Origin: an uncultured Pseudomonadales bacterium
GTDB lineage: Bacteria; Patescibacteriota; Microgenomatia; UBA1400; PJMF01
DNA: 64,000 bases
Reading direction: 5' to 3'
NCBI GenBank assembly: GCA_964648715.1
Contig: CAZYNM010000003.1
Coordinates: 29,430 to 93,429 of the forward strand
The notes beneath the pieces were generated by a model that saw nothing but the letters and a program-made list of their open reading frames with translations, had not been told where the DNA came from and ran no database searches. The position numbers were made by a program, and so were the translations under genes. Shown one piece after another: positions 27 through 46,020 of this stretch; within the stretch, counting starts at the first letter, position 1; every line of letters starts with the position of its first letter.

Positions 27-103
27 GGTGGTATTAGCTCAGCTGGTTAGAGCGCCTCCCTGTGGAGGAGGAGGTCGCCGGTTCGAACCCGGTATACCAC
101 CCA
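27..103 (+). tRNA. tRNA-His (anticodon GUG), with an encoded extra 5' G(-1) that pairs with discriminator C
   Basis: Cloverleaf read by hand: acceptor GTGGTAT/ATACCAC, D-arm AGCTCAGCTGGTTAGAGC, anticodon stem CCTCC/GGAGG with loop CTGTGGA (GTG at positions 34-36), T-arm GCCGG TTCGAAC CCGG, 3' CCA. Confidence 0.85.
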
Positions 104-2499: not shown

Positions 2500-4023
2500 A
2501 TGGTTGCCAACATCTTGTGGGGAAAAAGAATAGTTTTATTGGCAGCTTTGTCTATTTTTTTCTTTCTTCTGTTGTATGGAGTGCGAATTCAAAGTCACTC
2601 GTGGTATTTTCAAGATGAAGGTGAACATACTGTAGTGGGTTGGATGCAGTACCGATTTGGGAAAGTACTATATCTTGATTTGAGCACTAATCATCAACCG
2701 ATTCCTATTTTGGTTGGTCAATTTATTAGTGCGTTTGTTCCCTATGATACATTTTTTCAGTATATTTACAGATTGAGAGTAGTACTGTGGATGTATGCAT
2801 TTTGTTATGGCGCATTGCTTGTCTGGAGGTTCCGCATCAGAGGACTTGGTGTGTACCTCCTCACCTATAGTGCAGCTCATTATTTTTTTGGTTGGCATCT
2901 TTTGGCTGAATCGCTGGCGGTACCTCCTGTTCTTTGGATTATGTTATCGTTGCGTGAAGAGAGGCAAACAACGATCGATGCAATTTTTTTTGGTGGTGCG
3001 ATTTTTCTCATTGCCTTTTCACTACTGCCTCTGTGGCCTTTTCTCGCACTAAGCTCACTTGTGTATGCGTATAGATTTGGATGGAAGCCTTCCCAAGTGG
3101 CCGTAATTACTCTGCTGTGTGCGTCACTGATCCTTTTTTCCCAAATAGCAGTCTTTGGATGGTTCAGAGAAACGGTCTGGAATAATATCAATTATTTTAT
3201 TCCCTATGAAGCTGCTCATGACACGTTTCACTACTTGCGTTTGCTTTTCTATCCTTTTTTTAATGTGCATCTATGGTATGCAGTACCTTTGTTGATTGCA
3301 TTAATTTTTGTAGTATGGAAACATAAGAGACATCGTTCCTTTACTCTGGTGCTATGTGCTCTCTGTTTCTTGCTCAACCTTAGGACAAGTGAAATAAATG
3401 CACAATACTATGCTGGATTTCACCTTTTCCCATATGTTGCTGGTATAAGTTTTCTAAGTTTATATACTTTTGAGCTACTACGAGAATCTGCAACTGCTAG
3501 ACATATCAAATGGTATACTCTGGGACTAAGTGTGTATCTGGGGATAGTGGTCATATCCCAACTATCTTGGGTGCTGGAATCTAGATCAAGGCTACAAGAT
3601 TACTTTATTTACTATGATACTTTTCAAGCATACGGAACGGCACTAAAAGTACTCGCCCGCCCAGGAGATACATTACTTACTGGACCGGATGGCGCAGGAT
3701 ATATGAATATGGTTGCTGATCTACCCTACCCTGGGTTACAACATTTTCATTTGGAATGGGCGTACCGCGTTCCAGAATTACGAGAACGATGGCTCAAGAT
3801 GATGCAAACCAAGCCACCAACCTTCATCTATTTTAATCTAGGTAATGATGGGTATTCAAATGTCTTGCGCCCACTGCTAAAGGAAAAGTATACGGTCTTA
3901 AAGAGGAAAGATGGGACAGATACTTTGCTTTTTATGCGTACCGATGCTGTCCCACAGATCTCTGAAGAACAGTGGCAGCATTTTGAAGAACAGGCATTTG
4001 AAAGGATTCAGTTCAGATCATGA
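2500..4023 (+). CDS. GT-C fold (PMT/ArnT-like) integral membrane glycosyltransferase-like protein
   Basis: TM1 is followed by the extracytoplasmic-loop motif SWYFQDEGEH (the DE motif typical of GT39/GT83). There are ~10 TM segments and then a ~150-aa soluble C-terminal domain. Confidence 0.5.
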   Translation: MVANILWGKRIVLLAALSIFFFLLLYGVRIQSHSWYFQDEGEHTVVGWMQYRFGKVLYLDLSTNHQPIPILVGQFISAFVPYDTFFQYIYRLRVVLWMYAFCYGALLVWRFRIRGLGVYLLTYSAAHYFFGWHLLAESLAVPPVLWIMLSLREERQTTIDAIFFGGAIFLIAFSLLPLWPFLALSSLVYAYRFGWKPSQVAVITLLCASLILFSQIAVFGWFRETVWNNINYFIPYEAAHDTFHYLRLLFYPFFNVHLWYAVPLLIALIFVVWKHKRHRSFTLVLCALCFLLNLRTSEINAQYYAGFHLFPYVAGISFLSLYTFELLRESATARHIKWYTLGLSVYLGIVVISQLSWVLESRSRLQDYFIYYDTFQAYGTALKVLARPGDTLLTGPDGAGYMNMVADLPYPGLQHFHLEWAYRVPELRERWLKMMQTKPPTFIYFNLGNDGYSNVLRPLLKEKYTVLKRKDGTDTLLFMRTDAVPQISEEQWQHFEEQAFERIQFRS

Positions 4024-29323: not shown

Positions 29324-30607
29324 TTACTCGTTTGTTTCAATTACTTGCCTGTCGCCCATAAATGGCTGTAACACCTCTGGAATTCTGATGCTTCCGTCTT
29401 TCTGTTGATAGTTCTCAAGAACTGCTGCCAGAAGTCGTGGTGAGGCTGCCATAGTGTTGTTGAGCGTGTACACATACTTGAGTGTCCCATCACTTGCTTT
29501 ATAACGAATGTTCAAGCGTCGCGCCTGAAAGTCATTAAAGTAACTGGCAGAGTGTGTTTCTCGATACTTATTCTGTGAAGGGAACCAAGTCTCAATATCA
29601 TACTTTTTGCGTTGCCCTGCTCCCATGTCGCCACTACACATTCGCAAAACGTGATATGGCAGCTTGAGGTCTTGAAGCAGTGATTCTGCATACCCTACCA
29701 TCTTTTCGTGCCATTTTCTGGTTTCAGTTTCATCAGCAACGGTGTACACCACCTGTTCCACTTTGGTAAATTGATGCACACGAATTACACCCTGTGTGTC
29801 TTTTCCATATGATCCCACTTCTCTTCTAAAGCACGGTGAAATGCCCACCATCTTGATGGGTAGATCTTTTTCGGTAAGCGTCTCACCCATGCGGTATGCC
29901 GTGAGAGCAACTTCTGCTGTGCCTGCCAGGACTTGATCATCCTGTGTCTGGTAGTGATCTTCATTGCCCCAAGGGAAATAGCCAGTGCCCCACATTGCTT
30001 CTTTGTTTACTAGAACTGGTGCAGTCAGTGGTGTAAACCCATCGGCGATAAGTTTGCGCATTGCGTACATGAGCAAAGCTTGTTCAAGGAGTACCGCTTC
30101 ATTTTTGAGGAAGTATGCGCGAAACCCACCAATTGCTGTAGCTCGCTTGGTATCAATAAGATCAAGTGCTTCCATAAGCTCTTGGTGTGGTTTTGGAGTA
30201 AAGTTAAACTGAGGAATCTCACCCCAAGTGCGCTCCTCTACATTCCCAGATTCATCCCGACCAAAGGGCACATCGTCAGCTGGAATATTGGGAACTGAGT
30301 AGGCAAGTTTTTGTACCTGCTCTTCAAGCTCTTTAAGTTGAGGCTCCAAGGTTTTGAGCTGTTCTTTGATTTCTTTACCCTTAGCAACCTGCTCTGTTGT
30401 GGGCTTTTCACCTTTGCCCACCATGTTTTTTATAGTTTCAACCAGCTCATTACTTTGTTGGCGTAGCGCATCTACTTTCTGTTGGACATCTCTCCTGTTG
30501 GTATCTGCTGTCAGCAACTCATCAATGCAGTCTGTGCTGAATTGTTTATTACGTGCGCCTTGTTTTACTGCTTCCGCATTTTCACGGATAAACTTGAGAT
30601 CTAACAT
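29324..30607 (-). CDS. serS: seryl-tRNA synthetase
   Basis: MLDLKFIRENAEAVKQG...coiled-coil N-terminal arm followed by a class II catalytic core. The start is set at ATG 30607; the longer annotated ORF would read into the T-box leader. Confidence 0.9.
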   Translation of the reverse strand: MLDLKFIRENAEAVKQGARNKQFSTDCIDELLTADTNRRDVQQKVDALRQQSNELVETIKNMVGKGEKPTTEQVAKGKEIKEQLKTLEPQLKELEEQVQKLAYSVPNIPADDVPFGRDESGNVEERTWGEIPQFNFTPKPHQELMEALDLIDTKRATAIGGFRAYFLKNEAVLLEQALLMYAMRKLIADGFTPLTAPVLVNKEAMWGTGYFPWGNEDHYQTQDDQVLAGTAEVALTAYRMGETLTEKDLPIKMVGISPCFRREVGSYGKDTQGVIRVHQFTKVEQVVYTVADETETRKWHEKMVGYAESLLQDLKLPYHVLRMCSGDMGAGQRKKYDIETWFPSQNKYRETHSASYFNDFQARRLNIRYKASDGTLKYVYTLNNTMAASPRLLAAVLENYQQKDGSIRIPEVLQPFMGDRQVIETNE

Positions 30608-30880
30608 GTCTCCCTTTCGTGGTTGCTCTTGTATATGCACTAAAAAACCCTCTTGAGAGTACGGATAAACCATACTACCAAGAGGGTTTTCTGTTGTACA
30701 CAAAAAACGGTGCCACCTTTTGTACTACTTCGTTCCAGCTATTACGGGCATACCCGGTGAGGTTGTAACCCCTCACAAAGCGTGTGATTTCCCACAATCA
30801 GTGCGTGCTAGGCACCGTGTTTCGCTTTGTACCTGTATGCCCGTTAGTATACTCCCTAGCAATATGCTTTGTAAAGTTAC
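30608..30880 (-). promoter_or_regulatory. T-box riboswitch leader upstream of serS
   Basis: Minus strand carries AAAAGGTGGCACCG (T-box sequence) followed by the hairpin CCCTCTTGG...CAAGAGGG and TTTTTT, ending ~30 nt before the serS ATG. The segment is near-identical to the proS leader (GGTGG(C/T)ACCGTTTTT(T)GT..ACA.CA.AAAACCCTC). Confidence 0.6.
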
Positions 30881-31149
30881 TAGGTAAGTTTAGAAAGCCA
30901 GGAGCTAACATGGATAGCAAATAGTTGTACATCTCGACCAGCATCAAAAGCAGCATCATTTTCATCTCCACCATTTATACTAAATTCGCTTCGGTAGCGA
31001 GCTGCTGCGAGTAGCTGTAGTTTATCGGTTAGATCTTCTGGTGATAACTGCGCGGCTTGCACTATAAGTTTGGCAACTTCAGTAACCAATGGGTCAGTTA
31101 ATCTTAGATACTCACTCATTCCTCTACAGCTGTGTATTTGTTCTGGCAT
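30880..31149 (-). CDS. hypothetical small helical protein (89 aa)
   Basis: The ORF sits between a palindromic site and the serS leader and has no recognisable motif. It may not be translated. Confidence 0.3.
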   Translation of the reverse strand: MPEQIHSCRGMSEYLRLTDPLVTEVAKLIVQAAQLSPEDLTDKLQLLAAARYRSEFSINGGDENDAAFDAGRDVQLFAIHVSSWLSKLT

Positions 31150-31165
31150 GTTGGTGCCTTTCTAA

Positions 31166-31188
31166 ATCGTATGAAATTTTCATACGAT
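31166..31188. promoter_or_regulatory. perfect 11-bp inverted repeat with 1-nt spacer (operator-like palindrome)
   Basis: ATCGTATGAAA-t-TTTCATACGAT in the 78-nt gap upstream of the 89-aa ORF / serS leader region. Confidence 0.4.
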
Positions 31189-31227
31189 TGATGAAAGTCT
31201 ACACCCGTGTGTGAGCAAATGCAAGTT

Positions 31228-32274
31228 TTAAGCAAAAATCTGAGAAGGAGTATACTGGGGAAGGCCTGGCAGTGATGTGAAGAGGTGTGCGTCATCTGGG
31301 TTTGTGACACATAGTCCTTTTATAAGACCATGCTTCCACCCAAAAGTAAGGTTTCTGAGTTCATGCTCACCACGAGGTGGAAGCACAAAAAATTCAGTTT
31401 GCGTTGTCCCTCGCAGCTGCATTTCATACATGACTTGCACGAGTTCATTAGGGTAGGAAATAAGAATTTGTGTTTGCGCGCCAAGTGTGTCAAAAAAGGC
31501 TGTGATTCTTTCTTTTTTATTTGGTATGCGCTCTGTGTGCATCATGCCTTTAAAAGACTGCATCTTTCCGTGTGGAGTATGAATCACCCAGTCACGTTGT
31601 TGCATGGTGAGACTTGCTCTTAGTGCTGTCAATGTGTGTGCTGGCATGCCACTTCCCGATGTTTTTATGACTACCGGCACTCCTTTGTGGATGAACGTCT
31701 CGGCATCGGGGGAAAAGCCGTCAAGCAAGAATGGGTCGACACGTTTGACAGTGTATCCTTTTTGGCGAAGATCTCTGTATGTTTCATCATTCCACACCAT
31801 AATGGTGCTGTATGGCAGGCGCATGTTTGCCAACAGTGCGCTTTGTTTGGGGCGCACATCAGGGACATAGAGCTCAATAGGATTTTTTTGATCTGTGAGG
31901 CGTTGTGGCACACCAAGCAGCATGTGTTCTTGTACCACCTTCCAGGTGTACGGAGTGCCTGCTTGAACTTCAGGAATGTGCCGAACATGATAAAGAAAGT
32001 TAAGGTATAAAGCATAGCCAAAGAGCTTGCCTGCCCAGCTACTGCGCAGCTCTTCTCCGTGTTTGAGATACTCTGTACGCGCATGCTCACTACGGGTCAT
32101 CAGTGCGTGCCCAAAGCCTGCAACTCGTGGTAAATGATGGAGGGTAATGCTATGAAATGGACTAGTTGTTGTGCGGCGATGTGTTGCTTCCAGCGCATAC
32201 AATGATGCAGGGTTGCCATCTCCAATAGAGATGCTTGTACCAACGATTAGTTCAGGATTGGATCTTGAAGACAT
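31228..32274 (-). CDS. hypothetical protein (348 aa); possibly a GT-B-like fold, function unknown
   Basis: Long ORF translationally coupled (TAATG) to the upstream 115-aa gene. I recognise no definitive motif. Confidence 0.4.
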   Translation of the reverse strand: MSSRSNPELIVGTSISIGDGNPASLYALEATHRRTTTSPFHSITLHHLPRVAGFGHALMTRSEHARTEYLKHGEELRSSWAGKLFGYALYLNFLYHVRHIPEVQAGTPYTWKVVQEHMLLGVPQRLTDQKNPIELYVPDVRPKQSALLANMRLPYSTIMVWNDETYRDLRQKGYTVKRVDPFLLDGFSPDAETFIHKGVPVVIKTSGSGMPAHTLTALRASLTMQQRDWVIHTPHGKMQSFKGMMHTERIPNKKERITAFFDTLGAQTQILISYPNELVQVMYEMQLRGTTQTEFFVLPPRGEHELRNLTFGWKHGLIKGLCVTNPDDAHLFTSLPGLPQYTPSQIFA

Positions 32275-32621
32275 TACTCCTCAAAGGATACCGCAGGGAT
32301 CTGCGATTCTTCAAGCAGATAGTTTTCTGGCTGTGTGCGCACTGCTTCAATGAGTGTTTCCAATGGCATGAGAGCTGCTGGTGCAAGTTGCACACCTGCT
32401 TTGCCCAAGAAAGCTCGAGTTACAAGTGCATCAATTCTCTGTGCTGCGTACTCTGTCATTTCTTGAGTAACCTCTTCACCTTCAGGGATGATCTCTTGGA
32501 GTTGGGTGAGAACGTTGTGTATGGCAAGCGCGTAGAGATATGGGTACTGCTCTGCAGTAGCTTGTACAATTTCCGGCTTCATACCGGCAGCTTGCATAGC
32601 TTCGTACAGGTGAATTTTCAT
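32274..32621 (-). CDS. hypothetical acidic protein (115 aa)
   Basis: The ORF has a coupled stop/start with the downstream gene and carries no motif. Confidence 0.4.
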   Translation of the reverse strand: MKIHLYEAMQAAGMKPEIVQATAEQYPYLYALAIHNVLTQLQEIIPEGEEVTQEMTEYAAQRIDALVTRAFLGKAGVQLAPAALMPLETLIEAVRTQPENYLLEESQIPAVSFEE

Positions 32622-32656
32622 AGGTATTCTGTCTTGAATATAAATACTGTGTGTGT

Positions 32657-32734
32657 CAAAAAGTAAGTGTTAACATGGGGACGTTAACACCGGGCTGAGC
32701 AAAAAGAGCAAACCCATGTTAACACTTACTTTTT
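32657..32734. repeat. 22-bp perfect inverted repeat with ~32-nt spacer (intergenic hairpin or terminator)
   Basis: AAAAAGTAAGTGTTAACATGGG ... CCCATGTTAACACTTACTTTTT, with an additional GTTAACAC copy in the loop. It lies between two minus-strand genes. Confidence 0.6.
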
Positions 32735-32739
32735 ACTTA

Positions 32740-33321
32740 TTAGCCAATGCGCTCGAGCCCATTGGGGCCAATAGTGAAGCTCATAAAACCAGCTTCACCG
32801 TCAGACATCTGTGACATTGCTGCGCGAATGGCAGAAGCAAAGTCAAAGGATTGTGATGGTTGAGCGCTCTGGTATATTCGTGGAACCTCAAGTCCAGCAC
32901 CTTCAAGAGCTTTGCGGATGAGATATGGCATATTTGTGAGATCTTCCTGCTCTGCCATAGTGCCGAGTCCCAGGCAAAGACCAGTGATGACGATCATAGC
33001 TTGTTTTTCTTCTGCAGTTCTCACTGTTTCAGGGCGAGGTGTGCCGTCTGCGTTAAATGCCTTTAACATATGATCAAAAGCATTCCTACCACAGGTGCAG
33101 CCTGCCCATGGCACTGTTGACTGCGGGTCTAGATCATCTCCATAACCCTCTTTTCGACGCATGACCGCAGTCAATGCATCTGCTTCCATGCGTGCGATAA
33201 CGCTCTCAGCCACTTGTGGCTTCAGAAGCAAAATGGCAAGATCTTTCGCACACTGGACTGCACTCAAATCTAGAGCAATAGTGGTGGCGTTCATAGTAAA
33301 ACCTCCTGTAGGTTTGGACAA
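32740..33321 (-). CDS. hypothetical protein (193 aa)
   Basis: ORF with normal composition, a Cys-x-Cys (GCTCG) and no known motif. Confidence 0.4.
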   Translation of the reverse strand: MSKPTGGFTMNATTIALDLSAVQCAKDLAILLLKPQVAESVIARMEADALTAVMRRKEGYGDDLDPQSTVPWAGCTCGRNAFDHMLKAFNADGTPRPETVRTAEEKQAMIVITGLCLGLGTMAEQEDLTNMPYLIRKALEGAGLEVPRIYQSAQPSQSFDFASAIRAAMSQMSDGEAGFMSFTIGPNGLERIG

Positions 33322-33601
33322 ATGAAAAAGTTTTTTCAGTTTTCGAGGCAGTCGCCCCTAAACTTTCTGTCTTCCACCCTATGGAGGTGGCTGACAAAGA
33401 GTCTCCGCAACCAACATACACTATTGGCTTGGGTGACTCTTCATCAACCTTAAAAAGTAAGTTTCCCCATGTTAACGAGCTTGGTCTGTGCTATCTCGCT
33501 TGTAGATTGTACGTCTGTACAATAAGCAAAATAACACATAAGAGCACACATTATATCACTACGTATCACTTGGTCAAGTCTTATGGGATGCTCAACGCGT
33601 A

Positions 33602-35650
33602 TTACTGCTTAAAGACAGTAATGAGAAAGGTAATATGATCATCAGCTTGCTTATTGATGAGTTGCATACCATGTTCAATGTCTTCTCTACTCACATTAGC
33701 AGCAAATGCTTTATCTTTGAGCTTTTTCTTGACAGACTTTGCTTCCATGTCGGCAAAGCCGTTTGGGCGCATCAAGGATGCGGCGTGCATAAGGCCAGAT
33801 AGCTCATCACATGCAAACAAGTATTTTTCTAGCTGAGATATAGGTTCTTTACCAGTCCTGCCAGGGGCATGGGCAGCTATGGCATCTTTGAGAGTTTGCG
33901 GATATGCAGGTAGCAGCTCTGCGATTGCTTTGTTGGGATGCTCGTCTGGATACTCTTCCCAGTCTAAGTCATGCAGCAAGCCTGTCTGGTACCAGAGTTC
34001 AGTGTCTTCACCCAAGATATGTGCATAAGCTTCCATGGCTTTCGCTACCATATGGCAGTGATGCAACAGCGCAGGGTTTTTAACGTAGGTGGTGAGAAGT
34101 TTTTCTGCTTCTTCCCGAGATGGTAGCGCGGTTGAGTCTGGTGTTGTTATTTTTTGACCAACAGATGGTTGTGATTCCTGAGGGCGGGTAATTGCTTGAA
34201 CTTGGGTGAGTGGACGCAAGGTGGGAAACGCGATTACTTCTTTGATACTCCAGGTGTTAGTAAGAAACATCACAAGACGATCTATCCCAATGCCGATACC
34301 ACCAAGCGGTGGCATGCCATACTCCATTGCTTCCAAGAAGTCTTCATCCAGTGGGTGTGCCTCACTATCACCGGATCGCATACGTTTTTGTTCGTTCTCA
34401 AAGATAGCGCGCTGATCTAATGCATCAGTGATCTCGCTCCAGCCATCAGCAAGCTCTTTGCCCCCAATATATGCCTCAAAACGTTCGGCAAGCCCTGGTT
34501 TGCTGCGATGTGCTTTGGCCAGTGGGCTTACGTCACGGGGATAATCAATGATCCAGATAGGATCAATGAGGAACTGAGGAACGAGCTTGTCAAAGAGTGC
34601 GAACAGTGCTTTCCCTCTGGTGAACTCACCGATAATGTCGATATGTTTGTCTGTGAGCAGGGTGCGCAACTGTTCATCGGAGTGTGCATCAAAATCAAGC
34701 TGTGCATACTTCTCCAGTGCAGCATGCATGGTGATACGGGGCCAGAGACCACCAACATCTACGGTATGCTTGCCCACTGTCAATTGTGTGCTGCCATACA
34801 ATTTGAGAGCCAAATGCTTGATAAGGCCTTCGGTCACATCCATCATCCTGTTGTAGTCGGCATATGCTTCGTACCATTCGATCATAGTGAATTCAGGCTG
34901 ATGGGTCTGATCAATGCCTTCATTGCGGAAGTTGCGTGCTATCTCAAATATTTTTTCGTAACCCGCAACAATGAGCCGTTTGAGGTAGAGCTCTGGGGCA
35001 AGGCGGAGGTAAAAGTTGACGTCAAGCGCATTCATGTAGGTGGTAAATGGCTTTGCATTAGTGCCCCCATACAGTGGCTGGAAAATGGGTGTTTCTACCT
35101 CAATAAAGTTATGTTGATCTTGCAAGTACCGTCTGGTTTCTTTCTCGATGGTCCAGCGTGCATCAAGCACTCGTTTGGTATCTGGGTTAATAAGGATGTC
35201 TAGATAGCGTTTGCGAAACCGAACTTCTTTATCTTCTGCACTATTCCATGCTGATGGAATTGGCAGTAGTGATTTGCCCAAGAATGTCATGTGCTCTGCC
35301 TGGATGGTAACTTCACCTGTTTTTGAAGTAATAACAGGCCCTGTAACACCAACATAATCGCCTGAATCAATATATTTGAATAGCTCAAATGCTTCAGTTC
35401 CAATATTCTCTTCACGGAACATCACCTGGATACTCGCAGTACTGTCTTTGAGATCAGCAAAATTGACTTTGCCATGCAGCCGCACGGACATCATCCGTCC
35501 TGCGGTGGTAACGGTGTTCCCCAACAGCTCACGGGCTTCTGCGATGCTGTGTTTTTTATCAAATGTACATGGGTGTGCAACGACCCCGGCTGCTTCAAGG
35601 CCGCGTCTTTTTTCTAGTTTTGCTGTTTTAGTTTCATCTATTCTTGACAT
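33602..35650 (-). CDS. lysS: lysyl-tRNA synthetase (class II) fused to a C-terminal HD-domain phosphohydrolase module
   Basis: An N-terminal OB anticodon-binding region precedes the class II core (motifs FRNEG, GGIGIGIDRLVM). An extra ~180 aa carries H...HD...H...D (LLHHCHMVAKAME, GLLHDLD, AAHAPG, LFACDELSG). Confidence 0.85.
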   Translation of the reverse strand: MSRIDETKTAKLEKRRGLEAAGVVAHPCTFDKKHSIAEARELLGNTVTTAGRMMSVRLHGKVNFADLKDSTASIQVMFREENIGTEAFELFKYIDSGDYVGVTGPVITSKTGEVTIQAEHMTFLGKSLLPIPSAWNSAEDKEVRFRKRYLDILINPDTKRVLDARWTIEKETRRYLQDQHNFIEVETPIFQPLYGGTNAKPFTTYMNALDVNFYLRLAPELYLKRLIVAGYEKIFEIARNFRNEGIDQTHQPEFTMIEWYEAYADYNRMMDVTEGLIKHLALKLYGSTQLTVGKHTVDVGGLWPRITMHAALEKYAQLDFDAHSDEQLRTLLTDKHIDIIGEFTRGKALFALFDKLVPQFLIDPIWIIDYPRDVSPLAKAHRSKPGLAERFEAYIGGKELADGWSEITDALDQRAIFENEQKRMRSGDSEAHPLDEDFLEAMEYGMPPLGGIGIGIDRLVMFLTNTWSIKEVIAFPTLRPLTQVQAITRPQESQPSVGQKITTPDSTALPSREEAEKLLTTYVKNPALLHHCHMVAKAMEAYAHILGEDTELWYQTGLLHDLDWEEYPDEHPNKAIAELLPAYPQTLKDAIAAHAPGRTGKEPISQLEKYLFACDELSGLMHAASLMRPNGFADMEAKSVKKKLKDKAFAANVSREDIEHGMQLINKQADDHITFLITVFKQ

Positions 35651-35732: not shown

Positions 35733-36260
35733 TTATTTAATATCTAAGATCTGATACTCCATCTCCCCGCCTGGTGCGGAAACCTTACATGCATCACCCT
35801 TCTTCTTACCCATCAGGGCTTTACCAAGGGGTGAAACACTTGAGATCTTACGATCCCCAGGAGATGCTTCAAACTCACCAACTATTGTCACCGTCATTTC
35901 TTGTTTTTTGCCACTCATGGTTTGGAGGGTCACTACTGAACCCATACCAACAGCATTGTGGCTTTTTGTTGCCTTAACCACTTTTGCTGATGAGACAATT
36001 GCCTGAATCTCGTCAATACGAGTCTGGATAAGTTGCTGCTCATCTCTGGCGCTGTGATATTCTGCGTTTTCAGCAAGATCTCCGTACTCGCGAGCCTTGG
36101 CAACGCGCTCAATAACTTCGGGCAGTTTCTTTGAAGTAAGCTCAAGCAGTTCCGCGTTAAGGTCATCAAGACCTTCCTGAGTTAACTCAGCTTGTTTTAC
36201 TTGAGGTGTCGCCAATGAATCGTCTGGAGCGACTGGTTTTGCTGCTGCTTTTTTTGGCAT
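35733..36260 (-). CDS. greA: transcription elongation factor GreA
   Basis: AREYGDLAENAEYHSARDEQQLIQTRIDEIQ (coiled-coil finger with acidic tip) plus a C-terminal FKBP-like domain. It has a 30-aa N-terminal extension. Confidence 0.8.
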   Translation of the reverse strand: MPKKAAAKPVAPDDSLATPQVKQAELTQEGLDDLNAELLELTSKKLPEVIERVAKAREYGDLAENAEYHSARDEQQLIQTRIDEIQAIVSSAKVVKATKSHNAVGMGSVVTLQTMSGKKQEMTVTIVGEFEASPGDRKISSVSPLGKALMGKKKGDACKVSAPGGEMEYQILDIK

Positions 36261-45945: not shown

Positions 45946-46020
45946 TGGGTCCGCCGGGATTCGAACCCGGGACGCACAGCTTAAAAGGCTGTCGCTCTAA
46001 CCGACTGAGCTACGGACCCA
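45946..46020 (-). tRNA. tRNA-Lys (anticodon UUU)
   Basis: Reverse complement TGGGTCCGTAGCTCAGTCGGTTAGAGCGACAGCCTTTTAAGCTGTGCGTCCCGGGTTCGAATCCCGGCGGACCCA. Anticodon stem ACAGC/GCTGT with loop CTTTTAA, T-loop GGTTCGAATCC, 3' CCA. Confidence 0.85.

Follow-up and report, generated by a model that had tools for sequence, protein, structure and literature searches.

The window described here is a stretch of 64,000 nucleotides from a record titled uncultured Pseudomonadales bacterium (GenBank assembly GCA_964648715.1, contig CAZYNM010000003.1, positions 29,430 to 93,429 of the forward strand). Its reverse strand carries lysS-HD, a gene whose product joins a predicted class II lysyl-tRNA synthetase (LysRS) to a C-terminal domain of the HD superfamily. 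All positions below are those of the window unless a locus is named, and residues are numbered along the 682-amino-acid product. The gene is made up as follows:

33602-35650, reverse strand: lysS-HD fusion gene, an uninterrupted open reading frame (ORF) of 682 amino acids with an ATG start and a TAA stop at 33602-33604
35285-35512, reverse strand: OB-fold anticodon-binding domain, residues 47-122 (Pfam PF01336, 59.3 bits)
34211-35233, reverse strand: LysRS class II (D/K/N) catalytic core, residues 140-480 (PF00152 match at residues 140-478, 293.7 bits)
34127-34210, reverse strand: inter-domain linker, residues 481-508, LTQVQAITRPQESQPSVGQKITTPDSTA, of low complexity and unconserved
33605-34126, reverse strand: predicted HD-superfamily metallo-phosphohydrolase domain, residues 509-682 (Pfam HD and NCBIfam HDIG, both above their cut-offs)

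A first-pass annotation of this DNA had described a complete LysRS core ending near residue 500. The core is indeed complete. In addition to the two Pfam matches, the N-terminal 480 residues match the NCBIfam lysS equivalog TIGR00499 (506.9 bits, cut-off 427.6), and the fusion protein matches PRK00484 (585.2 bits, cut-off 468). The proposed boundary, in contrast, lies too far downstream: the core ends near residue 480, at the motif FPTLRP, and is followed by the 28-residue linker and then by the HD domain of 174 residues, well outside anything expected by chance. No class I LysRS and no second LysRS copy was found within the 64-kb window. Judging by these profile matches, the product of ORF 33602-35650 is a class II LysRS, in the view we favor the cell's lysyl-tRNA synthetase.

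A profile search of the C-terminal part, the check suggested with the earlier description, returned Pfam HD (PF01966) at residues 529-618 (gathering cut-off 22; 25.6 bits in the full-length protein, 28.6 for the isolated domain) and HDIG (TIGR00277; cut-off 27.6; 29.1 and 32.1 bits, respectively). The isolated domain was modeled by AlphaFold2 (AF2) as an all-helical bundle with a predicted local distance difference test score (pLDDT) of 96, and stand-alone proteins of about 176 amino acids exist that are 70-76% identical to it. The four motifs quoted in the first-pass annotation are present (LLHHCHM at residue 528, LLHDLD at 558, AAHAPG at 592 and FACDELSG at 612). Conservation of individual residues was followed in an alignment of 118 fusions and, family-wide, in 80 loci from Patescibacteria, Balneolaceae and Gemmatimonadota. 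The conserved elements are:

34058-34060, reverse strand: H531, first histidine of the H..HD..D motif, invariant in the 118 fusions and the 80 loci
33956-33973, reverse strand: H560-D561-L-D563-W564-E565 (HDxDWE), the HD doublet and family signature, with H560, D561, D563, W564 and E565 invariant family-wide
33935-33940, reverse strand: H571-P572, an extra histidine that may be a second-metal ligand, invariant family-wide
33869-33871, reverse strand: H594 (AHAP), a histidine at a helix end, invariant family-wide and 34 residues past the HD doublet
33803-33808, reverse strand: D615-E616 (ACDELSG), last aspartate of the HD motif, invariant family-wide
33686-33769, reverse strand: basic region R628-P629...K642-K643-x-K645...R655, at least 97% conserved in homologues from Patescibacteria, Balneolaceae and Gemmatimonadota

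H531, H560, D561, H571, H594 and D615 are each invariant in the alignment of fusions, as are D563, E565, P572, E616, R628-P629, K642 and R655, while the linker varies freely. Across the 80 loci the family signature reads H531..GLLH560-D561-x-D-W-E..P..H571-P..H594..C-D615-E..G..R628-P..K642-K-x-K..F-A..R655..H672. The invariant histidines beyond the minimal H..HD..D set are compatible with a two-metal site, and the metal site of the family is possibly dinuclear. From this pattern we infer that the HD domain is catalytically competent; because the catalytic doublet is invariant, a pure binding role is unlikely. The basic region probably binds phosphate or nucleic acid.

The fusion itself is widely conserved. 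A search with the whole protein was run against 5.8 billion proteins, and the 120 best matches were considered. An identical public entry was found (P0121, from an NCBI contig of 94 kb), and more than 115 clusters among these matches cover 100% of the query at 64-83% identity, with lengths of 673-734 amino acids; nearly all of these full-length clusters carry precomputed LysRS and HD Pfam domains. Orthologous fusions, which the first-pass annotation had asked about, are thus numerous and identical in architecture. The covalent LysRS-HD fusion that it had proposed is real, with its HD metal-ligand residues intact and strongly constrained, and, as far as sequence comparison can tell, it is also ancient.

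Linker length ranges from 18 to 81 residues (median 31, 116 fusions), with a composition rich in A, K, T, S and P. In the AF2 model of the full-length protein, the domains are predicted with confidence, pLDDT falls below 50 for residues 483-505, and no fixed docking of the HD domain onto LysRS is predicted (predicted template modeling score of the whole protein 0.49). The model presents the linker as a flexible, disordered tether, which fits co-localization and fixed stoichiometry of the two modules rather than a rigid composite active site. The same model gives pLDDT below 50 to a part of the core, residues 185-254 (approximately 34889-35098), despite high conservation; this probably reflects modeling the monomer of an obligate dimer from a shallow alignment, not true disorder.

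To place the HD domain among characterized proteins, sequence and structure comparisons were used. Searches of PDB sequences, by the single domain as well as by a profile of 47 sequences, returned only noise (retroviral Gag, E≥0.008) and a marginal match to PgpH. Foldseek matches in the PDB were weak throughout (E≥0.01, template modeling (TM) scores of 0.44-0.53). They were headed by SP1746, the YqeK of Streptococcus pneumoniae (PMC13627108), and included the YqeK-family structures 3ccg, 2ogi, 8wmy and 2o08, as well as the HD domain of the Escherichia coli GlyRS beta subunit, PgpH, YpgQ, dNTPases, MESH1, SAH and Rel.

An NCBIfam scan of 47 family members matched HDIG in all 47. The NadD-YqeK model PRK07152 was also matched by 47/47, far below its cut-off (best E of 1e-5); the domain from the window aligns to profile positions 187-232, which we take to be the YqeK part. 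Below their cut-offs, 40/47 also matched the DVU_1551 family, in which an HD domain is joined to an NTP transferase, 37/47 matched RNase Y, and 24/47 matched NrtL, an anticodon-binding protein described as related to ArgS; the tRNA methyltransferase model PRK12703 was matched as well. YqeK itself (TIGR00488) was matched by 16 of the 47 relatives, with a best E of 2e-4 and none above the cut-off. We conclude that the HD domain, on profile and fold evidence, represents a separate, uncharacterized HD family with 878 representatives (50% clusters) at E≤1e-10, and that YqeK is its closest characterized relative, at the superfamily level. Direct membership in YqeK was considered and rejected on the absence of a TIGR00488 match above cut-off and on a leucine that stands in place of a conserved YqeK arginine. 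The domain is therefore not a member of the YqeK type that the first-pass annotation had brought in for comparison: relatives in the family show weak, sub-threshold YqeK matches, and the leucine is invariant.

LysRS recurs as the partner of this HD family. An exhaustive HMMER search of 1.84 billion representatives (50% clusters) found a class II LysRS sequence in 18 of the best 150 HD-family representatives, and lysS was confirmed by NCBIfam in 6/6 fusions tested. The LysRS cores of the full-length fusions among those 18 share 32-44% identity with the core in the window, except for P0217 at 69%. Several domain architectures were observed. The order LysRS-HD occurs in several deep lineages, and the reverse order, HD-LysRS, is seen in P0295/P0390 (715 amino acids; L084, 6001-8148), on a contig that carries a Por_Secre_tail gene and on that basis appears to come from Bacteroidota. 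Further domains stand between LysRS and HD in LysRS-B3/4-HD (class II; P0136 and P0222, 917-929 amino acids), LysRS-NUDIX-HD (P0341, 935 amino acids) and LysRS-DUF2000-HD (P0250 and P0397, 833 amino acids), and one family member is a MazG-HD protein (P0302, 310 amino acids). The fold of DUF2000 is presumably PTH2-like; for the DUF2000 insert, no PDB sequence match and no paper was found. Neither a class I LysRS nor any other synthetase was found fused to the HD family in the 408 proteins retrieved.

One host is the cultured actinobacterium Parafannyhessea umbonata (Atopobiaceae), whose LysRS-HD protein has 752 amino acids (P0402, WP_078687421.1; L083, 6001-8259) and whose lysS-HD gene lies directly downstream of greA, as it does in the window. 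In a neighbor-joining tree of 161 HD domains, calculated without support values, fused and stand-alone members interleave within the Patescibacteria clade; the sequences are short and about 70% identical, so that several fusion events and poor resolution are inseparable. Literature searches covering LysRS and the HD domains of aminoacyl-tRNA synthetases brought up no description of the LysRS-HD fusion or of its HD family. The few source names attached to the fusion proteins (NCBI, IMG, UniRef) are just "lysine--tRNA ligase" or "lysyl-tRNA synthetase".

Gene order at the locus is atpG-atpD-atpC-greA, a terminator-like hairpin, lysS-HD, four ORFs, serS and, later, secA. The features flanking the fusion gene are:

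35733-36260, reverse strand: greA, the upstream neighbor conserved in this syntenic block (Pfam GreA_GreB_N and GreA_GreB), which is the same in loci L001-L019 and L081-L083
35687-35710, reverse strand: strong terminator-like hairpin between greA and the fusion gene (stem of 10 bp, 9 of them G-C, with a T run behind it)
29324-30703, reverse strand: serS, a conserved downstream member of the block (68% identity by tblastn with the SerRS of locus L005, match at 29357-30607)

A near-consensus extended -10 promoter-like site (11/12 matches) is located at 33550-33577 on the reverse strand, just past the fusion stop codon. With the hairpin upstream and this site downstream, lysS-HD may be its own transcription unit. 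Between lysS-HD and serS, positions 30880-33321 of the reverse strand hold four consecutive ORFs of 193, 115, 348 and 89 amino acids, none of which matches Pfam. In relatives the HD gene is followed by serS either immediately or with one to a few unrelated genes in between, and the block of about 2.4 kb seen here therefore resembles an insertion specific to this lineage. The only Rfam matches of the window to reach the gathering score of their family are two tRNA genes (28-101, forward strand; 45946-46019, reverse strand).

A scan with the HD profile, taking one genome per species, returned more than 590 loci, of which the best 80 were analyzed. Class II LysRS is fused directly upstream of HD in 10/80. 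At 13 other Patescibacteria loci, a stand-alone HD gene occupies the same slot and is preceded by a class I LysRS gene of about 550 amino acids (PF01921, 5e-80). These are L003-L007, L010, L012, L013, L015, L019, L022, L036 and L044; the arrangement is also found in L081 (3319-5537) and L082 (3362-5537). In 11/13 the class I LysRS and HD genes are separated by anything from a 4-nt overlap to 47 nt, and in the remaining two a NIF3/DUF34 gene lies between them (L010, 3195-3974; L022, 2829-3611), joined in the L022 gap by a small MazG-like ORF (3631-3951). Independent gene calls on two large contigs give the order greA, class I LysRS, HD (overlapping), serS and secA. Some of the class I enzymes, of about 790 amino acids, carry a C-terminal B3/4 domain (L003, 715-3099; L015, 1595-3988; L019, 1625-3988). 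B3/4 is the editing domain of PheRS, and on LysRS of both classes it would be an unexpected, editing-like addition.

Class I and class II LysRS thus appear to have been exchanged within one syntenic slot while the HD partner was kept, which by gene order is a clean case of in-situ non-orthologous displacement. Whether formed anew or retained, the pairing is present in either domain order, in three or more phyla and on both sides of the exchange of LysRS class, and this speaks for a link that is functional and not accidental. By these sequence comparisons, the association of the HD family with LysRS is repeated and specific.

Two observations on the compared records stand apart from this. Locus L082, from a Patescibacteria genome that uses class I LysRS, also holds a 371-amino-acid class II (PF00152) synthetase-like gene directly upstream of EF-P (1-676), an arrangement that looks EpmA/PoxA-like. 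In addition, the titles of several records fit their gene content poorly (L001, L008, L019, L028, L030, L044, L015, L021 and L042). The block atpDC-greA-LysRS-HD-serS-secA, typical of Patescibacteria, is found under the title "uncultured Pseudomonadales" and, in one record, under "Vitreimonas sp."; in the HD tree, L021 (titled "Candidatus Saccharibacteria") falls among sequences from Balneolaceae; and L042, also titled as Saccharibacteria, has the same gene order as the Dojkabacteria locus L059. These mismatched records probably bear wrong taxonomic labels.

Taken together, the protein is very probably a real bifunctional one, in which a catalytic HD module is functionally linked to LysRS. As to what that module does, the partner enzyme offers a lead. 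Nucleotidyl-transferring enzymes also have HD partners in SpoT/Rel, GlnD and the CCA-adding enzyme, and by analogy such fused HD domains would usually undo or clean up the transfer made by their partner. In the NadD-YqeK protein of a minimal genome, YqeK hydrolyzes the erroneous dinucleotide products of NadD (PMC9426524). LysRS is described as the principal source of diadenosine tetraphosphate (Ap4A), by a side reaction in which AMP is transferred from lysyl-adenylate (Lys-AMP) to ATP or other nucleoside triphosphates (NTPs), giving Ap4A or its mixed counterparts (Ap4N) (PMC13627108).

We propose that the class II LysRS makes Lys-AMP, some of which would react with nucleotides instead of tRNA and give Ap4A, Ap4N and diadenosine triphosphate (Ap3A), and that the tethered HD module would hydrolyze these adenylylated side products. 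Source and sink of the dinucleotides would then sit in one polypeptide at a 1:1 ratio, the side products of LysRS would be kept in check, and the HD module would be a dedicated LysRS accessory. As a whole, this proposal of a tethered metallo-phosphohydrolase that removes the adenylylated side products of Lys-AMP (Ap4A/Ap4N), its substrate assigned by analogy, is favored tentatively, as something approaching but not quite reaching an even chance.

Several lines of evidence lead to an Ap4A-type hydrolase: the NadD-YqeK precedent, the LysRS side reaction, YqeK as the nearest characterized relative, the NUDIX and MazG partners, and fusion to class II LysRS and to no other synthetase. The last of these supports an Ap4A role in particular, since every synthetase fused to the HD family is of the class that forms Ap4A. 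The NUDIX domain of P0341 and the MazG partners (P0302 and the MazG-like ORF of L022) point to a small nucleotide as the substrate. The first-pass annotation had suggested that the fusion would pair synthesis and turnover of Ap4A; this idea gains from YqeK as the top Foldseek match, from class II LysRS as the sole synthetase partner and from NUDIX and MazG.

Other observations weigh against a tethered Ap4A/Ap4N hydrolase. The protein from the window has no TIGR00488 match at E≤10, and YqeK structures, the best PDB fold matches to the HD domain, reach TM scores of only 0.44-0.53. HD phosphatases carry a conserved arginine about three residues ahead of the first histidine (PMC8177086), and the position of the YqeK arginine is an invariant leucine here (position 528); the adjacent position 529 is arginine in about 58% of family members and leucine in the protein from the window. 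Class I LysRS is also difficult to accommodate. It activates lysine only with tRNA bound and is not expected to be an Ap4A source, yet the gene for this HD domain is tightly coupled to it, in sister lineages translationally. The B3/4 and DUF2000 domains that stand between LysRS and HD in some lineages hint at tRNA chemistry. Finally, homologues in Balneolaceae and Gemmatimonadota (48-61% identity) are stand-alone genes with unrelated neighbors and no LysRS linkage, indicating that the HD enzyme also works without LysRS; those neighbors (DUF2752, TM2 and DUF4097 in Balneolaceae, endonuclease III in Gemmatimonadota) give no functional lead.

A wider role is possible, if on the doubtful side. The HD domain could be a LysRS-dedicated module for quality control or alarmone control, unrecognized until now, that was acquired on separate occasions in three or more phyla and by LysRS of either class, often together with a second hydrolase (B3/4, NUDIX or DUF2000). 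It would then belong to a modular "LysRS clean-up cassette" directed at mis-made nucleotides (Ap4N) and at mis-made or damaged tRNA(Lys).

The main rival to an Ap4A/Ap4N hydrolase, which we consider unlikely, is a tRNA-directed accessory that acts on tRNA(Lys) or Lys-tRNA and not on a free nucleotide. One possible task would be the mending of damaged 3' ends that carry a 2',3'-cyclic phosphate or a 3'-phosphate, which the HD domain of CCA-adding enzymes performs in bacteria; another would be help in holding the acceptor arm, the part played by the HD domain of bacterial GlyRS beta. Linkage to both LysRS classes fits this, as all that they have in common is tRNA(Lys), lysine and ATP, and so do the B3/4 domains that separate LysRS from HD in enzymes of either class, the DUF2000 domain of another lineage, and the invariant Lys/Arg-rich segment. 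The E. coli GlyRS beta HD domain ranks fourth in the Foldseek list (7eiv_C, E=0.029), and weak NCBIfam matches lead to RNase Y, NrtL and PRK12703; these RNA-family similarities, however, are all at the superfamily level and below cut-offs. The HD doublet lost in GlyRS beta (PMC8464048) is invariant here, which makes mere holding of the tRNA unlikely, NUDIX and MazG as partners suggest small-nucleotide substrates, and the members in Balneolaceae and Gemmatimonadota are unlinked to any synthetase.

Those stand-alone members, with their unrelated neighbors in two other phyla, speak instead for general housekeeping of the nucleotide pool, in which the domain would act, for example, as a nucleotidase, an NTP/dNTP pyrophosphohydrolase or an alarmone hydrolase and the link to LysRS would be no more than co-expression with a constitutive translation gene. 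MazG and NUDIX are classic house-cleaning domains, and YpgQ, dNTPases, MESH1 and SAH occur in the Foldseek list. The fusion could then have come from overlapping genes in compact genomes, chemically unconnected to the LysRS reaction: class I LysRS and HD genes overlap by a few bases, and one lost stop codon would fuse them. A chance fusion nevertheless leaves unexplained why LysRS is every synthetase partner (the 18 of the best 150 representatives), why both domain orders and fusion in at least three phyla occur, and why the pairing survives a swap of LysRS class in the same slot; we regard housekeeping as improbable.

Of the two findings named in the first-pass annotation as counting against its proposal, a missing HD match and a frameshift or join, neither was encountered. 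Although relatives often carry the HD protein of about 176 amino acids as a separate gene right after the LysRS gene, an artifact in which a sequencing frameshift, a stop codon lost in this assembly or a chimeric join merged lysS with an HD gene downstream of it is effectively refuted and almost certainly wrong, for the fused frame is conserved across the more than 115 independent clusters, whose origins span many samples and sources and include RefSeq proteins of one cultured species, every class II LysRS locus recovered is fused while separate HD genes follow class I and not class II, and GC content shows no break across the LysRS/HD junction.

The tethered Ap4A/Ap4N hydrolase, if borne out as a clean-up module, would be a third bacterial Ap4A hydrolase family besides ApaH and YqeK, and LysRS-HD would be the first aminoacyl-tRNA synthetase bearing the degrading enzyme for its own alarmone. 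It touches the question of which enzymes break down Ap4A in cells that lack ApaH and YqeK, especially in very small genomes such as those of Patescibacteria. A synthetase that carries its own phosphohydrolase would make the control of Ap4A directly testable with one recombinant protein, and P. umbonata (WP_078687421.1), as a cultured host, offers a practical experimental system. The comparison also exposes an unstudied HD family and a wider pattern in which LysRS is extended by hydrolase domains (HD, B3/4, NUDIX and DUF2000).

Among known systems, YqeK (COG1713/TIGR00488), which in Gram-positive bacteria hydrolyzes Ap4A and Ap4N symmetrically (Ap4A to 2 ADP), shares with the HD family described here an all-helical HD domain of about 180 amino acids. 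Its ligands, in BH1327, are H21, H50, D51, H83, H109 and D127, a six-ligand dinuclear motif H..HD..H..H..D (PMC8177086). Six invariant residues are found here in the order H531, H560, D561, H571, H594 and D615, with a different spacing after the doublet. The first histidine precedes the doublet by 29 residues in both families, and a further histidine follows it by 33 residues in YqeK (H83) and by 34 here (H594) (PMC8177086), whereas the last aspartate lies 76 residues past the doublet in YqeK and 54 here. The genomic partners differ as well: nadD for YqeK, and LysRS for the present family, with greA, LysRS and serS as neighbors at all Patescibacteria loci examined. The NadD-YqeK fusion of Mollicutes likewise joins an adenylyl-transferring enzyme to an HD hydrolase in a reduced genome, with NadD in place of an aminoacyl-tRNA synthetase and another HD family; a proofreading role here is drawn by analogy with it.

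Apart from the present domain, the one of GlyRS beta is the sole HD domain known to us within an aminoacyl-tRNA synthetase. Its structures are among the Foldseek top five (7eiv_C and 7yse_C). In that domain the HD doublet is replaced by Ser393/Lys394, and the domain serves in recognition of the tRNA acceptor arm (PMC8464048). It is integral to the synthetase and has lost the doublet, whereas LysRS-HD keeps an invariant doublet, its other candidate ligands are likewise invariant, and the domain hangs on a disordered tether.

LysX of mycobacteria (LysRS-MprF) likewise joins a second enzymatic module to a class II LysRS. LysRS-HD has no MprF or transmembrane part, and its appended C-terminal module is a predicted soluble phosphohydrolase. 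The LysX model NF002821 scores 508 bits against a cut-off of 742 and is matched at profile positions 617-1100, the LysRS part, in agreement with the first-pass annotation, which had set the fusion apart from LysX.

The long RSH (RelA/SpoT homologue) enzymes Rel and SpoT hold the maker and an HD-type breaker of an alarmone on one chain, where the two are reciprocally regulated. This design principle is common to them and LysRS-HD, while the synthetase folds are unrelated and the HD families different; MESH1, SAH and Rel rank low in the Foldseek list. On sequence grounds we conclude that LysRS-HD belongs to class II LysRS and to the HD superfamily, and is distinct from YqeK, LysX and the GlyRS-beta type of HD domain. 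An HD hydrolase joined to a nucleotidyl-transferring enzyme, and an aminoacyl-tRNA synthetase with an appended domain, are both known kinds of protein; the pairing of LysRS with HD appears to be new.

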